Shown: positions 14,524 to 23,555 of the stretch, in pieces
Numbering within the stretch: position 1 is the stretch's first letter
Layout of the letters: each line of letters begins with the position of its first letter
DNA from: Escherichia coli
GTDB taxonomy: Bacteria > Pseudomonadota > Gammaproteobacteria > Enterobacterales > Enterobacteriaceae
Assembly (NCBI RefSeq): GCF_045037415.1
Contig: NZ_CP173438.1
Length of the DNA: 64,000 nt
Direction: 5' to 3' (one strand)
The notes under the pieces: model-generated
What the model saw: only the letters and a program-made list of their open reading frames with translations
Database searches by the model: none
Told to the model about the DNA's origin: nothing
Translations under genes and position numbers: made by a program

Positions 14524-15834
14524 CTACACCAGCAGCAAAGATATTGCCGGAATATAGGTAATGACCAACAGAAGTAAAATAAGACTGATCAGTAATGGCA
14601 CCGCTTCACGCATAAATTGCCCGACAGAAACCTGTACGGTATTACATACCAGCAGCATCACCGTTCCGACAGGTGGTGATAACGTTCCTAACGATAAGTT
14701 GAGGATCATAATGATGCCAAAATGCACCGGATCAATGCCAAAATGAGCCACCACGGGTTTAAGTAATGGGACTAATATCAGCAGAATGGCACTACCTTCA
14801 AGGAACATGCCAAGCACCAGCAGCAATAGATTGATAATCAATAAAAAGACGTATTTATTATCGGTCAGAGAAGTTACAAACTCCGCAACCGTGATACCTG
14901 CCCGCTCAAGGGAAAATATCCAGCCCAGCGCGGCACTCGCCATAATGATTAACATGACCGATGCCGTGGAACGCGCCGTCTCAGAGAGTGCTGTAAATAC
15001 ATGGCTGATTTTCAGTTCGCGATAAATTACAAAACCAATAAACATTACCAATAATACTGCTACCGCTCCGGCTTCCGTTGGCGTAAAGATATTTGCCCGA
15101 ATACCACCGATAACCGCAACAATTAAGAACAGTGCTGGCCAGGCCTGCACCAGCGCCACTGACACTTCTTTCGGTTTTGGCCAGTGTTCGCTGGAAGGTT
15201 TTAAACCGCGACGAATAGCCACCAACCATACGGTAACGATCAACATGGCGGAGCACAGCAGACCTGGCAGGATCCCGGCCATAAACATGGAGCCGATGGA
15301 GACATCCGCCACCAGTCCGTAAAGGATCAGTGCAATACCCGGTGGAATAATTGGTGTAATCAGCGAACCACTTGCCGTTATCGCCGCCGCAAAGCCACGG
15401 GAATAACCTTTCTGTTCCATTTCCGGCACCATCATGCGCGATAACATTGCGGCATCCGCCAGATTTGAGGCACTGACACCGCCCATCATGGTACTGACCA
15501 GAATATTAGCCCCACCCAGGCCACCGCGCATTCTGCCAATCAACACGTTGGCAATTTGCAAAATACGCGCGGCAATACCGGTATAGCTCATTAACGTGCC
15601 TAATAAGATAAAAAACGGAATAGCTAACAGCGAAGGGGTTTGCGTCGTGGCAATCAAACGCTGAATTGCCACCATTAACGGCACATTTGAATAGCAAAGG
15701 AAGTAGGTCAGAATGCCGCAAAACATCGCCAGCCATACCGGCATATTGATAAATAAACAGACGAACATAAGCGGAATGATCATCAGCCAGTTATCCAGCC
15801 AGCTTCCCGCCAGTAATTCACTCAATGCTGTCAT
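14524..15834 (-). CDS. TRAP transporter large permease subunit (DctM family)
   Basis: 436 aa polytopic membrane protein; stop/start overlap with the upstream small permease. Confidence 0.85.
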   Translation of the reverse strand: MTALSELLAGSWLDNWLMIIPLMFVCLFINMPVWLAMFCGILTYFLCYSNVPLMVAIQRLIATTQTPSLLAIPFFILLGTLMSYTGIAARILQIANVLIGRMRGGLGGANILVSTMMGGVSASNLADAAMLSRMMVPEMEQKGYSRGFAAAITASGSLITPIIPPGIALILYGLVADVSIGSMFMAGILPGLLCSAMLIVTVWLVAIRRGLKPSSEHWPKPKEVSVALVQAWPALFLIVAVIGGIRANIFTPTEAGAVAVLLVMFIGFVIYRELKISHVFTALSETARSTASVMLIIMASAALGWIFSLERAGITVAEFVTSLTDNKYVFLLIINLLLLVLGMFLEGSAILLILVPLLKPVVAHFGIDPVHFGIIMILNLSLGTLSPPVGTVMLLVCNTVQVSVGQFMREAVPLLISLILLLLVITYIPAISLLLV

Positions 15835-16295
15835 TATTCACCTTCTTTGCGTGGCGTTTTCTTGATCAGTTGTAAGGCAGTAAAACAGGCGACACCGATA
15901 GCGCCAACCGTGACGGCAATATCGATCCAAAACCAGGATATTTTTAATATTTGCGTGGTTTTAAAGGCTGTCCCGGCAGCTAATTTCCATGCTGACCAGG
16001 CCATGACCACCAGCAAAATAATAGACATCAGAGAGACTAAAAACGCTAATATACGTTGCCCGCGTGAAGTAAGTGCATCGGCTAAAAATGGAATCGATAA
16101 ATGGGTATTATCTCGTTCAGCAACAACCGCACCAAACATGACTACCCAAATCATTAATAAACCGGAAACCTCTTCTGTCCACTGTAATGGCATATGAAAA
16201 CAGTAACGCATTATTACCGCAGCAATGGTCATGATTACCAATATAAAGAGCGTTAATACCGCAGCAACTTCAATCATTTTCCCTAAAAGACGCAT
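15834..16295 (-). CDS. TRAP transporter small permease subunit (DctQ family)
   Basis: ORF-track frame 15834..16331; start placed at ATG 16295 (MRLLGKMIEVAAVL, GAGG Shine-Dalgarno); alternative upstream start at 16331. Confidence 0.7.
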   Translation of the reverse strand: MRLLGKMIEVAAVLTLFILVIMTIAAVIMRYCFHMPLQWTEEVSGLLMIWVVMFGAVVAERDNTHLSIPFLADALTSRGQRILAFLVSLMSIILLVVMAWSAWKLAAGTAFKTTQILKISWFWIDIAVTVGAIGVACFTALQLIKKTPRKEGE

Positions 16296-16354
16296 AAACA
16301 CCTCTGCTCTTAACGGTCGGTGCCGAAACACCGACCAGTCCTTATGCCATGAAG

Positions 16355-17323
16355 TTATTTCAGCTGTTGCTGAATAGTGTCATACAAACCAGGGGTCCAT
16401 TCCGGGAATTGTTGATAGACTTTTAAGGCTTTTTCTTTGAAAGGGGCGACGTCAGGATAGATGATTTCCACGCCCTGCTCCTGCATGGTTTTCAACATTG
16501 TCGCATCCTGCTCAGTGGTAATTTTCTGGCTATATAAACCAGCTTCATACGCTGTCTGGTGAATAATATCTAACTGCGCAGGTGTCAGGGTACTGAAAAA
16601 CGCTTCGCCACCCAACCATAATGATGTATTGGTCAGATAGTTCACCATTGACAGATATTTCGCCTGCTCATGCAGCTTTTGCCCATAGAGAACAGAAACC
16701 GGGTTTTCCACACCATCGATCATCCCCTGAGTCAGCGCCGGATAAACATCTCCCAGCGGCATTGGTGTTGGGGTTGCGCCCATCGCTTCGATAGCTTTAA
16801 TCTGCATGACGTTATTCGGCACGCGGATCTTCATCCCTTTCAAGTCTTCAGGTGTACGAATCGGTTTTTTAGCAATGATCTGCCTGGTACCGTACAGATA
16901 GTTGCTCATGACAATATGCACACCTTTTTCCCGTAGTTTCTGTTCTTTTTGTTTAAACCAGTCACTGGCATAAATCGCAAACAGTTTCTGCGGATCTTCG
17001 GTTAAATAAGGCCCAAACAATATTCCCAAGTCTGCATCGTAGTCAGTTAAAAATCCTACATCACTGATGGTGATAATATTCATCCCCATCAACGCTTGTT
17101 CAGTAATATCTTGTTTAGAACCTAACTGTGAACTTGGGTAAAGTTCGAAAACAATATCTCCATTGCTTTTTTTCTTCACAAGTTCTGCCCAGTGCTTCAC
17201 TACTGTATCCGCTGGCTCGCCGGGGTTACTTTCATAGGCGATTTTGATAGTTACCGGTGCGGCATTCAGCATCGGACTAAATAAAGCTAAAAGAAATAAA
17301 AGTGGTGTCAGTAATTTTTTCAT
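16355..17323 (-). CDS. TRAP transporter substrate-binding protein (DctP family)
   Basis: 322 aa; signal peptide MKKLLTPLLFLLALFSPMLNAAPV; periplasmic binding-protein fold. Confidence 0.85.
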   Translation of the reverse strand: MKKLLTPLLFLLALFSPMLNAAPVTIKIAYESNPGEPADTVVKHWAELVKKKSNGDIVFELYPSSQLGSKQDITEQALMGMNIITISDVGFLTDYDADLGILFGPYLTEDPQKLFAIYASDWFKQKEQKLREKGVHIVMSNYLYGTRQIIAKKPIRTPEDLKGMKIRVPNNVMQIKAIEAMGATPTPMPLGDVYPALTQGMIDGVENPVSVLYGQKLHEQAKYLSMVNYLTNTSLWLGGEAFFSTLTPAQLDIIHQTAYEAGLYSQKITTEQDATMLKTMQEQGVEIIYPDVAPFKEKALKVYQQFPEWTPGLYDTIQQQLK

Positions 17324-17350
17324 TATTATTACCTGTAAGAGCTTTATCGA

Positions 17351-18547
17351 TTAACGGGGATCTGCCCGACAGACTGCACTTTTGCTGTAATCAAATGCTT
17401 TATACGTTAAAACAAACTCCTGATGTTCCAGTCGTTCTGCGGCACAATATTGACCGTTGGCGACATGTTCAATCACCTGCATAATATCGTCTGCAATATC
17501 GTCGAGCGTTGCGCCTTCGCTAATTACACGACCGGCATTAACGTCCATATCGTCAGATAAATGCTCCCACGTCTGCGGGTTATTACACACTTTAATAATA
17601 GGAGCGATCACTGAACCAATAACTGAACCGCGACCTGTGGTAAATAACACCATATGACAGCCAGAGGCGATAAGTTCCAGTGCTTCTGAGGAATCGTTAA
17701 TATTCGGATACCCAAAACGAGGTTCACCATCAGGCACCACGTCCATCAACCAAAGCCCAGGAAAGGGCGTTTGTTGCGTCGGCAAAATAACGCCAGCAAT
17801 CAGCGCATCGCCCGACTTGGTATAAGCCCCAAGGGATTTTTCTTCCTGAGTGGTTAAGCCGCCTTCAGCATTACCGTTAGAAAAACTCCCCAGCCCCATC
17901 AAACTGTAATAACGTTCGGCTTTTGTCATTGCCACTTCGATGGCATCACGTGCCTGCGAACTAGCCGCGCGCGACATCATATGCTGCTCACAACCAAGCA
18001 ACTCACCGCTTTCTTCAAAAATACAGGTAGCCCCTTTCTCCAGCAGTTGGTCAAAGGCACGTCCTACTGCCGGGTTACCCGTGATACCACTGGTGCCATC
18101 GGAGCCACCGCAGATAGTACCAACCACCAGGTCGCTCCAGTTCAGGATACAACGCGGTGTATCCGCAAGCTGTTCCAGCATTTCAGCGACCAACTGCTTA
18201 CCCAGAGTAATGGTGTTGGTCGTGCCTTTATTTTCCTGAATGACCAGCGTATGGCACGGTCGCCCACTTTCTCGTACTTCTTGCTCCAGCCGACGGCGAT
18301 CGAAATTCTCGCACCCCAGCGAAATAATCAGTACACCACCTACGTTGCTATGAGTCGCCAGATTTTTCACCAGCCGATAGCCATAATCGCTGGGATAACA
18401 ACCTGAAAAACCAAAATACTGCACGTCGTGACAAGGAAATCCTTCGGCAATCTTTTTAGCGACATGGCTGGCACACTCCACCATAAAGATTACCTGCACA
18501 GTATTACGAATACCTGGTCGACCATTTTGCCGTACATAACCTTCCAT
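17351..18547 (-). CDS. UxaA-family sugar-acid dehydratase, large subunit
   Basis: 398 aa resembling the C-terminal domain of altronate/galactarate dehydratases; 1-nt stop/start overlap with the SAF-domain partner. Confidence 0.8.
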   Translation of the reverse strand: MEGYVRQNGRPGIRNTVQVIFMVECASHVAKKIAEGFPCHDVQYFGFSGCYPSDYGYRLVKNLATHSNVGGVLIISLGCENFDRRRLEQEVRESGRPCHTLVIQENKGTTNTITLGKQLVAEMLEQLADTPRCILNWSDLVVGTICGGSDGTSGITGNPAVGRAFDQLLEKGATCIFEESGELLGCEQHMMSRAASSQARDAIEVAMTKAERYYSLMGLGSFSNGNAEGGLTTQEEKSLGAYTKSGDALIAGVILPTQQTPFPGLWLMDVVPDGEPRFGYPNINDSSEALELIASGCHMVLFTTGRGSVIGSVIAPIIKVCNNPQTWEHLSDDMDVNAGRVISEGATLDDIADDIMQVIEHVANGQYCAAERLEHQEFVLTYKAFDYSKSAVCRADPR

Positions 18548-18855
18548 TATGCTTTTTCCTCTGACTGATAGCCGGCATCATCATGATGAAAAATGGCGAT
18601 GGCATTGCTGGCAAGATTATGGGAATGCACATGTTCACCCATGGCAATATCGCGAGTGGCGTGTCCGATAATGGCGCCGTATTTCAGAATCGAATCACCA
18701 TTGTTCAGCGCTTCGCAGGCCAGTTTGTGCCCCAGGGTAACGGAACTACAGGCCACCATTTCCCCCTCATCCCACCAGACAATATCGCCACTGGCGATGT
18801 CATTCAGCGCGACTACACAGTTATCTTTGGCATGTAGCTTTAACGCACGTTTGCG
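18547..18855 (-). CDS. UxaA-family dehydratase small subunit (SAF domain)
   Basis: ORF-track frame extends to 18963 and would overlap the SDR gene; start placed at internal Met (MRKRALKLHAKDNCVVAL). Confidence 0.65.
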   Translation of the reverse strand, partial: RKRALKLHAKDNCVVALNDIASGDIVWWDEGEMVACSSVTLGHKLACEALNNGDSILKYGAIIGHATRDIAMGEHVHSHNLASNAIAIFHHDDAGYQSEEKA

Positions 18856-18872
18856 CATAATTCCTCCGTACA

Positions 18873-19628
18873 TCAGAAGCCGATCAATGCGCCGCCATCC
18901 ACCACCAGCACCTGACCACTGACAAACGCCGCTGCGTCTGAAGCCAGATAAACCGCAGCCCAACCGATATCCTCCGGCTTGCCGAATTTTTTCATCGGGG
19001 TACGACCCAGGATTTTGTTACGGCGTTCGTCATCACCTTCAATGGCCTTACGCAACATTGGTGTATCGATCCAGCCTGGCGCAATACCATTGACGCGAAT
19101 CCCATGAACGGCAAGCTCCGTGGTCATACCGCGAATCATGCCGAGATAGGCTGACTTCGCTGCGCTGTAGCCAGTAACCAGAGGCTGCCCAAGAAATGAG
19201 GTCATCGATGCAGTAAAAAGCACACAGCCTTTACCGCGTTGTTTCATATGCGGCACCAGCGCTTTGGTTAACGCAAATGCGCCGACTACGTGAACGTCGA
19301 GTACTGACTCAAAATCACTGACGCTCATCTCTTCAATCGGTTTTTTGCAGTGATTGCCTGCGTTATTGACCAGGATATCGATAGCCCCGTGTTCGCTAAT
19401 AAGCACATCAACTTTTTCCTGCGCGGCTGCGGTATCCCCGACATCCATTTGTATCCAACTGGCCTGCGACCCCAATGTTCCGGCGGTCGCTTGCGCCAGC
19501 TCGCCGTTCAGGTCAGCAATAATGACCTTCGCCCCGCTGACTATCATGCATTTCGCCATTGCCAGCCCCAGCCCACTGGCTGCACCGGTGATCAACGCGG
19601 TTTTGTTATGTAAAGAAAAAGCATTCAT
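18873..19628 (-). CDS. SDR-family NAD(P)-dependent oxidoreductase
   Basis: 251 aa; TGAASGLGLA Rossmann motif, YSAAK catalytic motif. Confidence 0.85.
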   Translation of the reverse strand: MNAFSLHNKTALITGAASGLGLAMAKCMIVSGAKVIIADLNGELAQATAGTLGSQASWIQMDVGDTAAAQEKVDVLISEHGAIDILVNNAGNHCKKPIEEMSVSDFESVLDVHVVGAFALTKALVPHMKQRGKGCVLFTASMTSFLGQPLVTGYSAAKSAYLGMIRGMTTELAVHGIRVNGIAPGWIDTPMLRKAIEGDDERRNKILGRTPMKKFGKPEDIGWAAVYLASDAAAFVSGQVLVVDGGALIGF

Positions 19629-19639
19629 GGTGTCGCTCC

Positions 19640-20653
19640 TTAAAGGTCAATGAGGATTTTGGTATACGCGCCGGGATCACTTGCCCAGTCGCTAAAAGCG
19701 TGATCAGCCTGTTCCAGCGGGTAGTGAGCACTCACCAGATTGCTGACCGGATAACGCCCGGACTCCATCAATGCCAGCACGGCACGAAAATCCGCCACGG
19801 TGGCATTGCGCGAACCACGGATATCCAGTTCTTTCATCAGGAACTGCGCACTCTGATAACTCACTGGCTGTTTGGCGTAACCGACATAAACCACACGACC
19901 GCTAAACGCCACCAACCCTGTAGCCTGTTCAATGGTTTGTTGATTACCCACCGCTTCAATCACCACTTCCGGGCCGCGACCGTCATTTAACAGCACCAGT
20001 TCTGCCGCCACGTCACATTGCTGCGAATTAAGAAAACGTTGCGCACCGCATTCCAGGGCAATGTTCCGCTTGCGATCATCAATATCGATAGCAATTACGC
20101 GCGCCCCCATGGCGGATGCCGCGGCGATAGCGCCAAGGCCAATTACCCCACAACCGATAACTGCGACCCATTCACCCACATTAATTTGCGCACGTCTGGC
20201 CGCATGTAGTCCCACGGCCAGCGGTTCTACCAGCGCTAACTCATCAACACTTAAGGCATTACAGACAATGACTTTATGTGCAGGCATCGTCAGTTGTTGC
20301 GCCATCCCCCCCTGACGTTGCACACCAAGAGTTTGGTTGTTTTTACAGGCGTTAGGACGACCGCTCAGACAGGAGCTGCACACGCCACACTCAGTGCAAG
20401 GCAGAACGACCACCCGGTCACCTGGCTTGATCGCCCCTGCCATATCGCCAGTTGCCAGCACCGTGCCGCCAATTTCATGCCCCGGAATACAGGGATAATT
20501 AACCAGCGGATTTAGTCCCCGCCAGGTATTGAGGTCAGAACCACACAGTCCGACACGCTCAACATTGATTAGCACTTCTCCTTTACCGCAGACAGGTTCG
20601 GGGATATCAACAAATCGCGCCTGACTTCCCTGCTCAATGGTTAATGCCTTCAT
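19640..20653 (-). CDS. Zn-dependent medium-chain alcohol/polyol dehydrogenase
   Basis: 337 aa; catalytic zinc motif (GHEIGG), structural-zinc Cys cluster (CTECGVCSSC), GCGVIGLG NAD motif. Confidence 0.85.
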   Translation of the reverse strand: MKALTIEQGSQARFVDIPEPVCGKGEVLINVERVGLCGSDLNTWRGLNPLVNYPCIPGHEIGGTVLATGDMAGAIKPGDRVVVLPCTECGVCSSCLSGRPNACKNNQTLGVQRQGGMAQQLTMPAHKVIVCNALSVDELALVEPLAVGLHAARRAQINVGEWVAVIGCGVIGLGAIAAASAMGARVIAIDIDDRKRNIALECGAQRFLNSQQCDVAAELVLLNDGRGPEVVIEAVGNQQTIEQATGLVAFSGRVVYVGYAKQPVSYQSAQFLMKELDIRGSRNATVADFRAVLALMESGRYPVSNLVSAHYPLEQADHAFSDWASDPGAYTKILIDL

Positions 20654-20665
20654 TCATTGCTCTCC

Positions 20666-21352
20666 TTACATTACGCCGAAGGTTTCAAAGGCCTGTACCG
20701 TGCTCATGCCATCACTGATGGCTTTGCGCACTTCACTTTCAGTTGCCACTTTTTCCAGGGCCTGGGTAATAACTTCTTTCTCAACAACCTGGGGAATAAT
20801 CAGTAATCCGTCACGATCACCAAACACGATATCGCCCGGATTCACTCGCACGCCGTGAAATTCAATAGGTACGCCGAAGTCGATGACCTTGCCGCGCGGA
20901 CCTTGATCCTGTGCGTAAGTGCCATGACAAAAAGTGGGAAATTTCAATTCAAGAATTTCAGCAGAGTCACGGGCGTAACCATCGAGTACCGCACCTGCTG
21001 CTTTCAGATGCATGGCACGGGTAGACATCAACCCGCCCCACAAGGCATAGCGCAGAGAGCTGCCCGTAGTGATGTAAACATCGTTCTCTTTGAGGGCATC
21101 CAGCGCTTCAAACATGATGCCAAACGGTTTTTCGCCAATCGCCGTCTTACCCGACGTCGATTTGGTTTCGTAAACGTCCGACTCCAGCACCGGCATTGCC
21201 CGGCCTGCCACCACCGTATTCACATCCAGCGGCTTGATTGCCGGAGAAACAAACTGGTGCATATAGCCCAGCGTGTCGAGAATATCGCCAACCACGGCGG
21301 TAAATAGCCGGGTTTTCATCAAAGCAAAAAGTTCGTTATCACTCTTCCACAT
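20666..21352 (-). CDS. RraA-family protein (putative 4-hydroxy-2-oxoacid aldolase / oxaloacetate decarboxylase-like)
   Basis: ORF-track frame 20666..21409; start placed at MWKSDNELFALMK; first gene of the catabolic operon. Confidence 0.7.
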   Translation of the reverse strand: MWKSDNELFALMKTRLFTAVVGDILDTLGYMHQFVSPAIKPLDVNTVVAGRAMPVLESDVYETKSTSGKTAIGEKPFGIMFEALDALKENDVYITTGSSLRYALWGGLMSTRAMHLKAAGAVLDGYARDSAEILELKFPTFCHGTYAQDQGPRGKVIDFGVPIEFHGVRVNPGDIVFGDRDGLLIIPQVVEKEVITQALEKVATESEVRKAISDGMSTVQAFETFGVM

Positions 21353-21409
21353 TATTTTCGTCCTGTAAGCCTGTTTAACAGGTTTACAGGGTAAGGAGAA
21401 AAAGCGCAC

Positions 21410-21615
21410 AATACTGCGAAGGGCGTCACGAAAAAGTTGTGTATTTACTATTTCTTCGCCACTCTTTCACACAATATGTCTTTGATTCGCACTGCATGGC
21501 GGGCGCACAGGCGCAGTAGTCTATTGATAATCAAGGGTTCTGGAGGAAAATATGAAGGATACAGTCCCGGTATTCTGGATTTCACCGACCAGGAAAAAGT
21601 ACAACAGGAGTAAAA
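21410..21615. promoter_or_regulatory. Divergent promoter region between the island-A catabolic operon and its GntR regulator
   Basis: 206-bp spacer between divergently oriented genes; contains a 23-codon uORF with a strong Shine-Dalgarno sequence. Confidence 0.45.
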
Positions 21616-22329
21616 ATGAGTGAGAGTGCGTTATTGACCAGCGTAACGTTATCGTCACAGGTCAAAAATCATATTCTTAATCTGATCGCCGAACAAAAAT
21701 TGACACCGGGGATGCCAGTTCCCAGTGAAGTTCAGCTGATTCAGAAATTGGGTGTCAGTCGGGGTATTGTGCGTGAGGCCTATCGTTCACTTGCCGCCCT
21801 GGGGATTCTGGAAACGCACAGCGGTAAAGTGCCACGAATCAAAAAATTTGATGATGAAGTGCTGCGCGTGGTGTTTGGATTTGCCCTGGCGACCGAACAA
21901 GTGACAACAGAGCAAATTCTTCAAGTACGCCGCTGGCTGGAGTTGGGCGTTGTGGAAGCTGCTGCCCGTAATGGCGAAGAGGAAGATTTTGCTAACCTAC
22001 GGGCTGAAATGGCAAAAATCCGCGAACAGTTCAATGATGTTGAAAGCTTTATCACCCATGATATCCGCTTCCATCAGTTACTTGCCGTTGCCTCAAAAAA
22101 TCCGCTTTTTATGATGTTATTGCAGGCATTACATCAGCAGTTGCGGCAATCCATCCAGGAGGGTTTAAACGCCCAAAGCGATCAGAAAGAGTATGGCAAT
22201 CACATCATCACACTACACCAGAAAATCTGCGATGCTGTGTGTGCCAGGGATGTCGAAACGGCGACTCAAGCCATGAAATCACACTTCGACAGCCCGGTCA
22301 GTGCACTGATCAATAATTCCTCGTCATAA
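21616..22329 (+). CDS. GntR/FadR-family transcriptional regulator
   Basis: 237 aa; N-terminal HTH (SEVQLIQKLGVSRGIVREAYRSL) and helical C-terminal effector domain; AGGAG Shine-Dalgarno. Confidence 0.85.
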   Translation: MSESALLTSVTLSSQVKNHILNLIAEQKLTPGMPVPSEVQLIQKLGVSRGIVREAYRSLAALGILETHSGKVPRIKKFDDEVLRVVFGFALATEQVTTEQILQVRRWLELGVVEAAARNGEEEDFANLRAEMAKIREQFNDVESFITHDIRFHQLLAVASKNPLFMMLLQALHQQLRQSIQEGLNAQSDQKEYGNHIITLHQKICDAVCARDVETATQAMKSHFDSPVSALINNSSS

Positions 22330-22508
22330 GACTTATCTCAGTTCAATCGTTTACTCTTCCCTCTTTTACAAACGAGAGGGAGACAACGGTACTTAATACG
22401 CCCTTTAGCCAAAATCTGTCTTTTTCTTGATTACCGCTATTTTTTCGTTGAGGCGCATTCTTTATGCTGTATCGATACACCAAAGGTAAGTTAAACAGGG
22501 AGTGACGG

Positions 22509-23555
22509 ATGCCAGTGCTACAGTGGGGAATGTTATGTGTTCTGTCACTTCTCCTTTCTATTGGCTTCCTCGCTTTACATCTCCCGGCGGCACTCCTGCT
22601 TGGCCCGATGATCGCGGGGATCATCTTCAGTATGCACGGAGTCACTCTGCAACTTCCCCGCTCCGCTTTTCTCGCTGCCCAAGCCATTCTTGGCTGCATG
22701 ATTGCACAAAACCTCACTGGTTCGATTCTCACCACGCTGGCCGTCAACTGGCCGATCGTGCTTGCGATTTTACTGGTGACGCTGCTTTCCAGCGCCATCG
22801 TGGGTTGGTTATTGGTGCGCTATAGCTCACTGCCTGGGAATACCGGGGCCTGGGGTTCTTCTCCTGGCGGCGCGGCGGCAATGGTCGCAATGGCGCAAGA
22901 TTACGGCGCAGATATTCGCCTGGTGGCGTTTATGCAATATCTGCGAGTGCTGTTCGTCGCAGGAGCCGCTGTTCTGGTCACCCGCATGATGCTGGGCGAT
23001 AACGCTGAAGCGGTTAACCAGCAGATCGTCTGGTTCCCGCCAGTGAGCATTAATCTCCTGCTTACGATTTTGCTCGCGGTCGTTGCCGGTACGGCGGGAT
23101 GCTTGCTACGTCTTCCTTCCGGCACGATGCTCATCCCGATGCTGGCGGGCGCAGTGCTCCAGTCTGGTCAGCTCATCACGATTGAACTCCCGGAATGGCT
23201 GCTGGCGATGGCATATATGGCAATTGGCTGGCGGATTGGTCTTGGTTTCGATAAGCAAATATTACTGCGGGCATTGCGCCCGCTACCGCAAATCCTGCTG
23301 TCGATTTTTGCTCTGCTGGCTATTTGTGCGGGCATGGCGTGGGGGCTGACCCGGTTTATGCATATTGATTTTATGACCGCCTACCTCGCCACCAGCCCCG
23401 GCGGGCTTGATACCGTGGCGGTCATCGCCGCAGGGAGCAATGCCGATATGGCGCTCATCATTGCGATGCAAACCCTGCGCCTGTTCAGTATTTTGCTGAC
23501 GGGGCCTGCCATCGCACGGTTTATTTCAACCTATGCGCCGAAGCGTTCGGCCTAG
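22509..23555 (+). CDS. abrB: AbrB-family inner membrane protein
   Basis: 348 aa polytopic membrane protein; 4-bp convergent overlap with nei. Confidence 0.85.

Follow-up and report, generated by a model that had tools for sequence, protein, structure and literature searches.

The 64,000-nucleotide (nt) stretch of an Escherichia coli chromosome analysed here (contig NZ_CP173438.1; hereafter the window) carries, immediately upstream of a gene for a FadR/GntR-family regulator, a 23-codon upstream open reading frame (uORF) that is preceded by a strong Shine-Dalgarno (SD) sequence and overlaps the start of the regulator gene. On balance, this uORF is probably a fortuitous open reading frame (ORF), restricted to Escherichia and situated in the promoter or leader of the gene of this FadR-family repressor, and no selected control element. 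The sequence data neither establish nor exclude an effect in cis, and they lean towards coincidence. The elements concerned are the following.

21552..21623, plus strand: 23-codon uORF, read from the sequence, with ATG at 21552-21554, TGA at 21621-21623 and the product MKDTVPVFWISPTRKKYNRSKNE.
21542-21546, plus strand: SD-like GGAGG of the uORF, separated from its ATG by the A-rich 5-nt spacer AAAAT.
21606-21610, plus strand: the regulator's own SD sequence, AGGAG, lying within the uORF and 5 nt before the ATG at 21616.
21616..22329, plus strand: gene of the FadR/GntR-family regulator, 237 amino acids (aa), with GntR helix-turn-helix (HTH; PF00392) and FCD (PF07729) domains.
21476..21613, plus strand: overlapping 45-codon ORF in another frame, lacking an SD sequence (58 codons if read from the TTG at 21437).

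An earlier note on this DNA had described the 23-codon ORF with GGAGG at ideal spacing, and its coordinates are exact to the base (GGAGG-N5-ATG). The overlap described there was also found: the junction reads ATGAGTGA, with the uORF ending 8 nt into the regulator ORF in a different frame. That description did not include the strong AGGAG of the regulator. In all four Escherichia lineages compared below, the stop of the uORF lies 5 nt past the regulator AUG. The ATG at 21616 is the start annotated by the NCBI Prokaryotic Genome Annotation Pipeline (PGAP; WP_000004202.1, FadR/GntR family), and an N-terminal extension of the regulator is impossible because a TGA in its frame occupies 21553-21555. 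The uORF lies within the 263-nt intergenic region that separates the regulator gene from a divergent RraA-family gene (21353-21615) and is absent from the PGAP annotation of the locus.

One check proposed in the earlier note was conservation of the uORF in homologous loci, disruption in close relatives counting as refutation, and by this criterion the uORF is not refuted. It is indeed open in four of four Escherichia lineages, namely E. coli, E. whittamii (peptide MKDTAPAFWILPARKKYNRSKNE), SCPM-O-B-8794, a divergent Escherichia lineage labelled E. coli (peptide MKDTAQVLWMSPARKKHSRSKNE), and E. albertii, in which a 15-nt (5-codon) in-frame deletion leaves 18 codons (peptide MSDADQLAKKQNNRSKNE). 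Such retention is nevertheless expected by chance. When the observed number and type of substitutions were placed at random, the uORF stayed open with a probability of 0.85 for E. whittamii and 0.67 for SCPM-O-B-8794. The 45-codon ORF, used as a control, is equally retained in these two lineages, with 4 synonymous and 2 non-synonymous changes in E. whittamii and 12 and 20, respectively, in SCPM-O-B-8794; it is destroyed in E. albertii. As the chance of retention is this high and an ORF in another frame is retained alike, the persistence of the uORF is uninformative. The control ORF, which overlaps the uORF, ends 2 nt before the regulator ATG and is labelled 'hypothetical protein' in a few GenBank records, is probably fortuitous as well.

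The substitutions themselves were counted over 21555-21605, which is the part of the uORF free of the constraint imposed by the SD sequence and start of the regulator. E. whittamii shows no synonymous and 4 non-synonymous changes in this part, and SCPM-O-B-8794 shows 3 and 7, which corresponds to a ratio of non-synonymous to synonymous differences per site (pN/pS) of 0.58. Altogether, the uORF body has undergone about 12-14 non-synonymous changes against 3 synonymous ones, and 8 of its first 18 residues differ in SCPM-O-B-8794. The flanking genes, by comparison, have a pN/pS of about 0.03-0.07. For two flanking genes in each lineage, compared with the window copy, the values are as follows.

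E. whittamii: pS 0.16-0.19, pN 0.008-0.011.
SCPM-O-B-8794: pS 0.32-0.48, pN 0.010-0.034.
E. albertii: pS 0.5-0.7, pN 0.025-0.036.

Judged from these counts, the uORF peptide is under no purifying selection. The divergence of the uORF body reaches 0.078, 0.196 and 0.389 in the three relatives, and only the segment 21476-21523 evolves faster. The conserved parts of the region are the block 21524-21554 and the SD sequence and start of the regulator, whose AGGAG is invariant across the four lineages. E. coli, E. whittamii and SCPM-O-B-8794 all have the GGAGG of the uORF. In E. albertii it is lost, a 1-nt deletion and a G>A change having converted it to CT-GAAG, and the SD sequence of the uORF appears from this comparison to be dispensable there. 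Within E. coli, the uORF polymorphisms seen are S11L, T13P and R19W, all three of which are non-synonymous. S11L (C21583T) occurs in every fetched genome with one or two mismatches (three genomes), and R19W (A21606T, by which AGGAG becomes TGGAG) is a singleton of strain CUVET19-970 (NZ_CP098910.1) and the only variant seen in the regulator's SD sequence.

Among 5426 complete E. coli genomes, 660 carry the locus at an identity of at least 95% over the intergenic region, and in 657 of these the identity reaches 99% or more. With a 90-nt query for the uORF region, 546 of the 660 match exactly, among them the ST131 strains EC958 and JJ1886, and 114 do not. Three Escherichia representatives besides E. 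coli carry the locus in a scan with one genome per species, and their regulators are 99% (E. whittamii), 96% (E. albertii) and 93% (SCPM-O-B-8794) identical at the aa level. The next relatives of the regulator, found in Entomohabitans, Sodalis, Citrobacter and Serratia, share at most 68% aa identity. Protein matches at 87-96% identity were considered as intermediate relatives and discarded, since they proved to be E. coli copies of the gene that were incomplete or carried frameshifts, and a metagenome scan for diverged copies with a 21-nt operator sequence returned only five E. coli-like copies.

The uORF is restricted to the Escherichia form of the locus. Neither a homologue of it nor any SD-bearing leader uORF was found in the orthologous loci of Entomohabitans, two Sodalis species and Citrobacter, although these loci retain the divergent order of the RraA-family and regulator genes and a CCTGT-N3-ACAGG palindrome. 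The exact 23-aa peptide is also absent from a collection of 15 billion proteins, which carries little weight since ORFs of 23 aa are rarely called. Two of the related loci contain an ORF of another kind. Sodalis ligni (locus L008, 3903-4004) and Sodalis sp. dw_96 (locus L015, 1903-2004) share an unrelated hydrophobic 33-codon ORF, MFVSSLISALFAVFITGLNGMTHTVHQEGIESP, which has no SD sequence and ends in an ATGA at the start codon of the orthologous regulator. The leader of about 100 nt that holds it diverges by 7% between the two species, compared with 35% at the synonymous sites of the regulator, and the sequence upstream of this leader cannot be aligned between them. Within E. coli, strain AVS0747 (NZ_CP124467.1) carries an ISEcp1 insertion in the intergenic region, with its junction at about 21441, which leaves the regulator on one side and the operator with the operon on the other; the 78-aa hypothetical protein that PGAP annotates there is the 45/58-aa frame extended into the end of the insertion sequence.

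The earlier note had suggested that the overlap could represent translational coupling. The geometry required is present, with the uORF stop 5 nt after the regulator AUG, but the regulator has an SD sequence of its own, no structure was recognised, GGAGG is lost in E. albertii, and the distant orthologues lack an SD-bearing uORF. The geometry itself is also ordinary. Among the 19 window genes with at least 100 nt of free upstream sequence, 6 have an out-of-frame ATG ORF of 12-99 codons that ends between -10 and +12 of the gene start, so the overlap of the uORF with the downstream start is nothing unusual. An apparent enrichment of start-overlapping uORFs across genera (3 of 5 lineages) was rejected, as the base rate is about 0.3 and the thresholds had been set post hoc.

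The start signal is less common. When the 263-nt intergenic region was shuffled 5000 times with its dinucleotides preserved, GGAGG followed after 4-9 nt by ATG and at least 20 codons appeared in 0.5% (p≈0.005), and any GGAG or GAGG core in place of GGAGG raised this to 3%. The two strands of the window together (128 kb) contain nine GGAGG-N4-10-ATG sites. Five of the nine sites open long ORFs of 103-557 aa. The remaining four, the uORF among them, open no long ORF, and two of these are antisense within long ORFs. These window counts correspond to roughly 0.02-0.03 spurious sites per kb, and the observed rates suggest that about 0.1-0.2 such cases are to be expected in a 5' leader per 64-kb window. 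The start signal is thus uncommon for a single locus, yet within a scan of 64 kb it is nothing out of the ordinary.

In the likeliest functional alternative, ribosomes would translate the uORF efficiently on a long, autoregulated leader, and the uORF would tune the synthesis of the FadR-family repressor in cis, either by reinitiation at the AUG located 5 nt before the uORF stop or by damping through occlusion of the regulator's SD sequence and AUG. We regard this as doubtful, though several observations favour it and weigh against coincidence. The uORF combines a strong SD sequence at ideal spacing, an ATG, a lysine as second codon and a stop that overlaps the downstream start. The 17 nt from the SD sequence to the ATG, TCTGGAGGAAAATATGAA, are identical in three lineages despite a synonymous divergence of 0.3-0.5, the ATG is kept in all four, and the deletion in E. 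albertii is in frame. A start motif of this kind is rare in shuffles, and more than half of its occurrences in the window, as counted above, open long ORFs. A dN/dS near 1 is compatible with a cis-acting uORF, which need not conserve its peptide. Furthermore, the intermediate diversity available for all comparisons amounts to four Escherichia lineages, which gives every test low power, and nothing usable was found in the literature on ribosome profiling or transcription-start maps of ST131/EC958 and island strains. If true, a tuning uORF would be a recent, Escherichia-specific translational layer over transcriptional autoregulation, and it would act in a sugar-acid catabolic island enriched in strains of sequence type 131 (ST131) and phylogroup F.

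Against such tuning stands the invariant AGGAG of the regulator, which is predicted to be unpaired and thus leaves nothing for translation of the uORF to unmask. In the predicted fold of 21530-21660, both the AGGAG and the AUG of the regulator are unpaired in the minimum free energy and centroid structures, whereas the GGAGG of the uORF is partly paired, and the fold energy is no better than that of shuffles (z -0.54). The 242-nt leader (21419-21660) gives a z of +0.29, and in its predicted fold the regulator's SD sequence pairs with ACUCUU at 21461-21466. This candidate anti-SD pairing (ACUCUU-AGGAGU) was rejected, the upstream element being ACGCUU in E. whittamii and SCPM-O-B-8794. An alignment fold of the four Escherichia leaders gave one apparent compensatory pair, which falls in a poorly aligned stretch of E. 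albertii and was rejected as a regulatory structure. Translational coupling is marked by a downstream ribosome-binding site (RBS) that is weak or sequestered and cannot initiate alone. This hallmark is lacking according to the models, since the regulator's SD sequence is predicted to be open and the ACUCUU pairing is not conserved. The absence of any significant or conserved structure, the loss of the SD sequence in E. albertii, the absence of the uORF from the loci of other genera that keep the operator, and the frequency of the overlap geometry by chance (6 of 19 first genes) all count against a cis-acting uORF.

The nearest precedent is uof-fur of E. coli, in which translation of fur depends on the upstream ORF uof (Vecerek, Moll and Blaesi 2007, as cited in PMC6191717). 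In that system, the coupling and its control by the small RNA (sRNA) RyhB were shown experimentally, and a second promoter lies inside the uORF. In both cases a short ORF directly precedes, in the same orientation, the gene of a transcription factor whose synthesis is proposed to depend on translation of that ORF; the promoter inside uof also parallels a promoter-like site that lies over the uORF start here. Coupling at the present locus, unlike in uof-fur, is a proposal from the sequence; the regulator is itself served by a strong RBS, and neither an sRNA site nor a structure is evident. A comparable arrangement is found in tap-repA (R1/IncFII) and repY-repZ (ColIb-P9), where a leader ORF of about 24-30 codons must be translated for downstream initiation and stops at the start of the downstream gene, as the uORF does. 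In those systems, the downstream RBS either is sequestered by stable folding or depends on a pseudoknot, and translation of the leader is prevented by an antisense RNA. In contrast, the downstream SD sequence is here predicted to be open and no structure beats shuffles.

The conserved block upstream of the uORF may also be read in another way, for which one further element has to be introduced.

21524..21551, plus strand: sigma-70 promoter-like TTGATA-16 nt-GAAAAT, 9/12 matches, overlapping GGAGG and ending just before the uORF ATG.

The block 21524-21554 may represent the RBS of the uORF or a sigma-70 promoter. In the latter case, it would be the promoter of the regulator (TTGATA at 21524, GAAAAT to 21551, transcription start near 21558), and GGAGG would be mere spacer and -10 sequence. 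We hold this tentatively, as a possibility slightly ahead of the cis-acting uORF; it is a sub-case of the fortuitous ORF and does not exclude it. It is consistent with the 9/12 match of the scan and with the divergence of the block (0, 0.097 and 0.233, compared with 0.04, 0.40 and 0.48 in its upstream neighbour), which makes it the most conserved distal segment. In E. albertii, moreover, GAAAAT persists despite the loss of GGAGG. In addition, the competing upstream promoter, TTTACA-18-CACAAT, is weakened: support for its TTTACA across genera was withdrawn, TTTACAGG being the outer arm of a nested palindrome. Conversely, the scan yielded 2 promoter-like sites against 0.9 expected in shuffles, which is not significant alone, and in E. 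albertii the -35 element is degraded to GCGATA with a spacer of 15 nt. E. albertii does not discriminate between a promoter and an RBS because the -35 element and GGAGG are both degraded there while GAAAAT and the ATG are both kept.

The earlier note had also likened the uORF to a leader peptide. An attenuation leader of the trpL/hisL type or a ligand-sensing arrest peptide of the TnaC/SpeFL type is very improbable here, the only likeness being that a short, RBS-bearing ORF lies in a 5' leader. The plus strand of 21200-21800 contains no hairpin with a T-run that resembles a terminator, and the overlap with the gene start leaves no room for terminator and antiterminator hairpins, which effectively excludes attenuation. 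No run of codons for one amino acid occurs in MKDTVPVFWISPTRKKYNRSKNE. Even between Escherichia lineages the peptide lacks conservation, hence it contains no conserved arrest motif of the ErmCL/TnaC/SecM/SpeFL type. An Rfam scan of 20500-23000 (E up to 10) gave no leader family, only meaningless matches to HIV-1_SD and sR39 inside the regulator coding sequence. The uORF therefore differs from the attenuation leaders (trpL, hisL, thrL, pheL) and from the arrest peptides (TnaC, SecM, SpeFL) in having neither a terminator, alternative hairpins and a regulatory codon run nor an arrest motif, and in overlapping the gene start.

A small protein of 23 aa, encoded ahead of the regulator and acting in trans, is hardly more plausible, and together with the attenuation or arrest peptide it accounts for only a very small share of the probability. 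The strong RBS would suit such a protein, as would a short hydrophobic stretch (VPVFWI) with a basic tail after it. However, its pN/pS is about 0.6 or higher, E. albertii combines the 5-codon deletion with heavy substitution, and 2 of the 23 codons are AGG, the rarest codon of E. coli. It has no counterpart outside Escherichia and, for what little this weighs, no exact match in the protein collection. Conserved bacterial small proteins are recognised by purifying selection and by homologues beyond close relatives, and the uORF shows neither.

If the uORF is fortuitous, as we think probable, two situations can be envisaged. In the first, the leader would be transcribed from a promoter upstream of 21540, and ribosomes would probably load at GGAGG-N5-AUG, read the 23 codons across the SD sequence and AUG of the regulator, and terminate 5 nt beyond this AUG. 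The consequence would be at most a modest, unselected effect in cis, with some reinitiation and some occlusion, that is, pervasive translation. In the second, the regulator would be transcribed from TTGATA-16-GAAAAT, which would leave the AUG of the uORF off the mRNA and make the conserved block a promoter. Pervasive translation has been described in E. coli by Ribo-RET, where most newly detected short ORFs are without purifying selection (bioRxiv 10.1101/2021.07.02.450978). Those ORFs were studied in K-12 and BL21, strains presumably lacking the island that carries the uORF.

With regard to its surroundings, the window belongs to an ST131-type E. coli chromosome, in which an accessory island occupies 14524-22329 between gltA and abrB. 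The minus strand of the island encodes a TRAP transporter, a split UxaA-family dehydratase, a short-chain dehydrogenase/reductase (SDR), a Zn-alcohol dehydrogenase and the RraA-family protein, and the regulator gene is divergent, on the plus strand. The island is carried by ST131, IAI39, CE10 and others among the complete E. coli genomes. We take it to be absent from K-12 and BL21, with the ybgOPQD fimbrial genes presumably at its position in K-12. A literature search found no paper on the island operon. Three elements lie on the operon side of the locus.

20666..21352, minus strand: RraA-family gene, first of the divergent sugar-acid operon, from sequence and annotation.
21362..21390, no strand assigned: 29-bp nested palindrome CCTGTAAGCCTGTTTAACAGGTTTACAGG, 93% complementary, 10-38 nt upstream of the ATG of the RraA-family gene.
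21415..21430, no strand assigned: CRP-like site TGCGA-N6-TCACG, found by eye, 8/10 matches to the consensus TGTGA-N6-TCACA, 32 nt from the palindrome core.

All orthologous loci examined, namely those of Entomohabitans, Sodalis and Citrobacter, share the conserved core of the palindrome, CCTGT-N3-ACAGG, which has only one exact match in the window; no second copy was found near the uORF, as the intergenic region contains no further match within 2 mismatches. The palindrome is likely the operator of the FadR-family regulator, with binding predicted from the sequence, and it fits the GT-N-AC type of FadR/GntR operators. The HTH and FCD domains of the regulator, together with a predicted operator with a GT-N-AC core, are those of a FadR/GntR regulator with a divergent catabolic operon. 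Entomohabitans and Citrobacter have CRP-like sites (TGTGC-N6-TCACG and TGCGA-N6-TCACA), again found by eye, at a distance of 32-33 nt from their palindromes. The palindrome and the CRP-like site suggest that the operon is activated by CRP and repressed by the regulator. A 28-nt inverted similarity (71% complementary) was also observed between 21353-21380, which comprises the translation-initiation region of the RraA-family gene and an operator arm, and 21525-21552, the initiation region of the uORF. ACAGGA or GGAGGA, an A-rich spacer and an ATG are common to all three starts of the region. This similarity may be the vestige of an inverted duplication or simply reflect shared RBS composition.

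The caveat in the earlier note that the arrangement could be coincidental was appropriate, and the comparison leans that way. As a matter of calibration, finding a perfect GGAGG-N5-ATG before a gene, even where sister species keep the frame open, is no evidence of function by itself if the body diverges as neutral DNA does, a frame overlapping it persists to the same extent, and the downstream gene has a strong RBS. The conserved 29-bp operator and the CRP-like site at fixed spacing may help work on the substrate and regulation of the island. Were the uORF functional, which would be locally useful and conceptually not new, it would add one more bacterial transcription factor whose synthesis is coupled to a uORF, here encoded in the accessory catabolic island carried by pandemic E. 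coli ST131.

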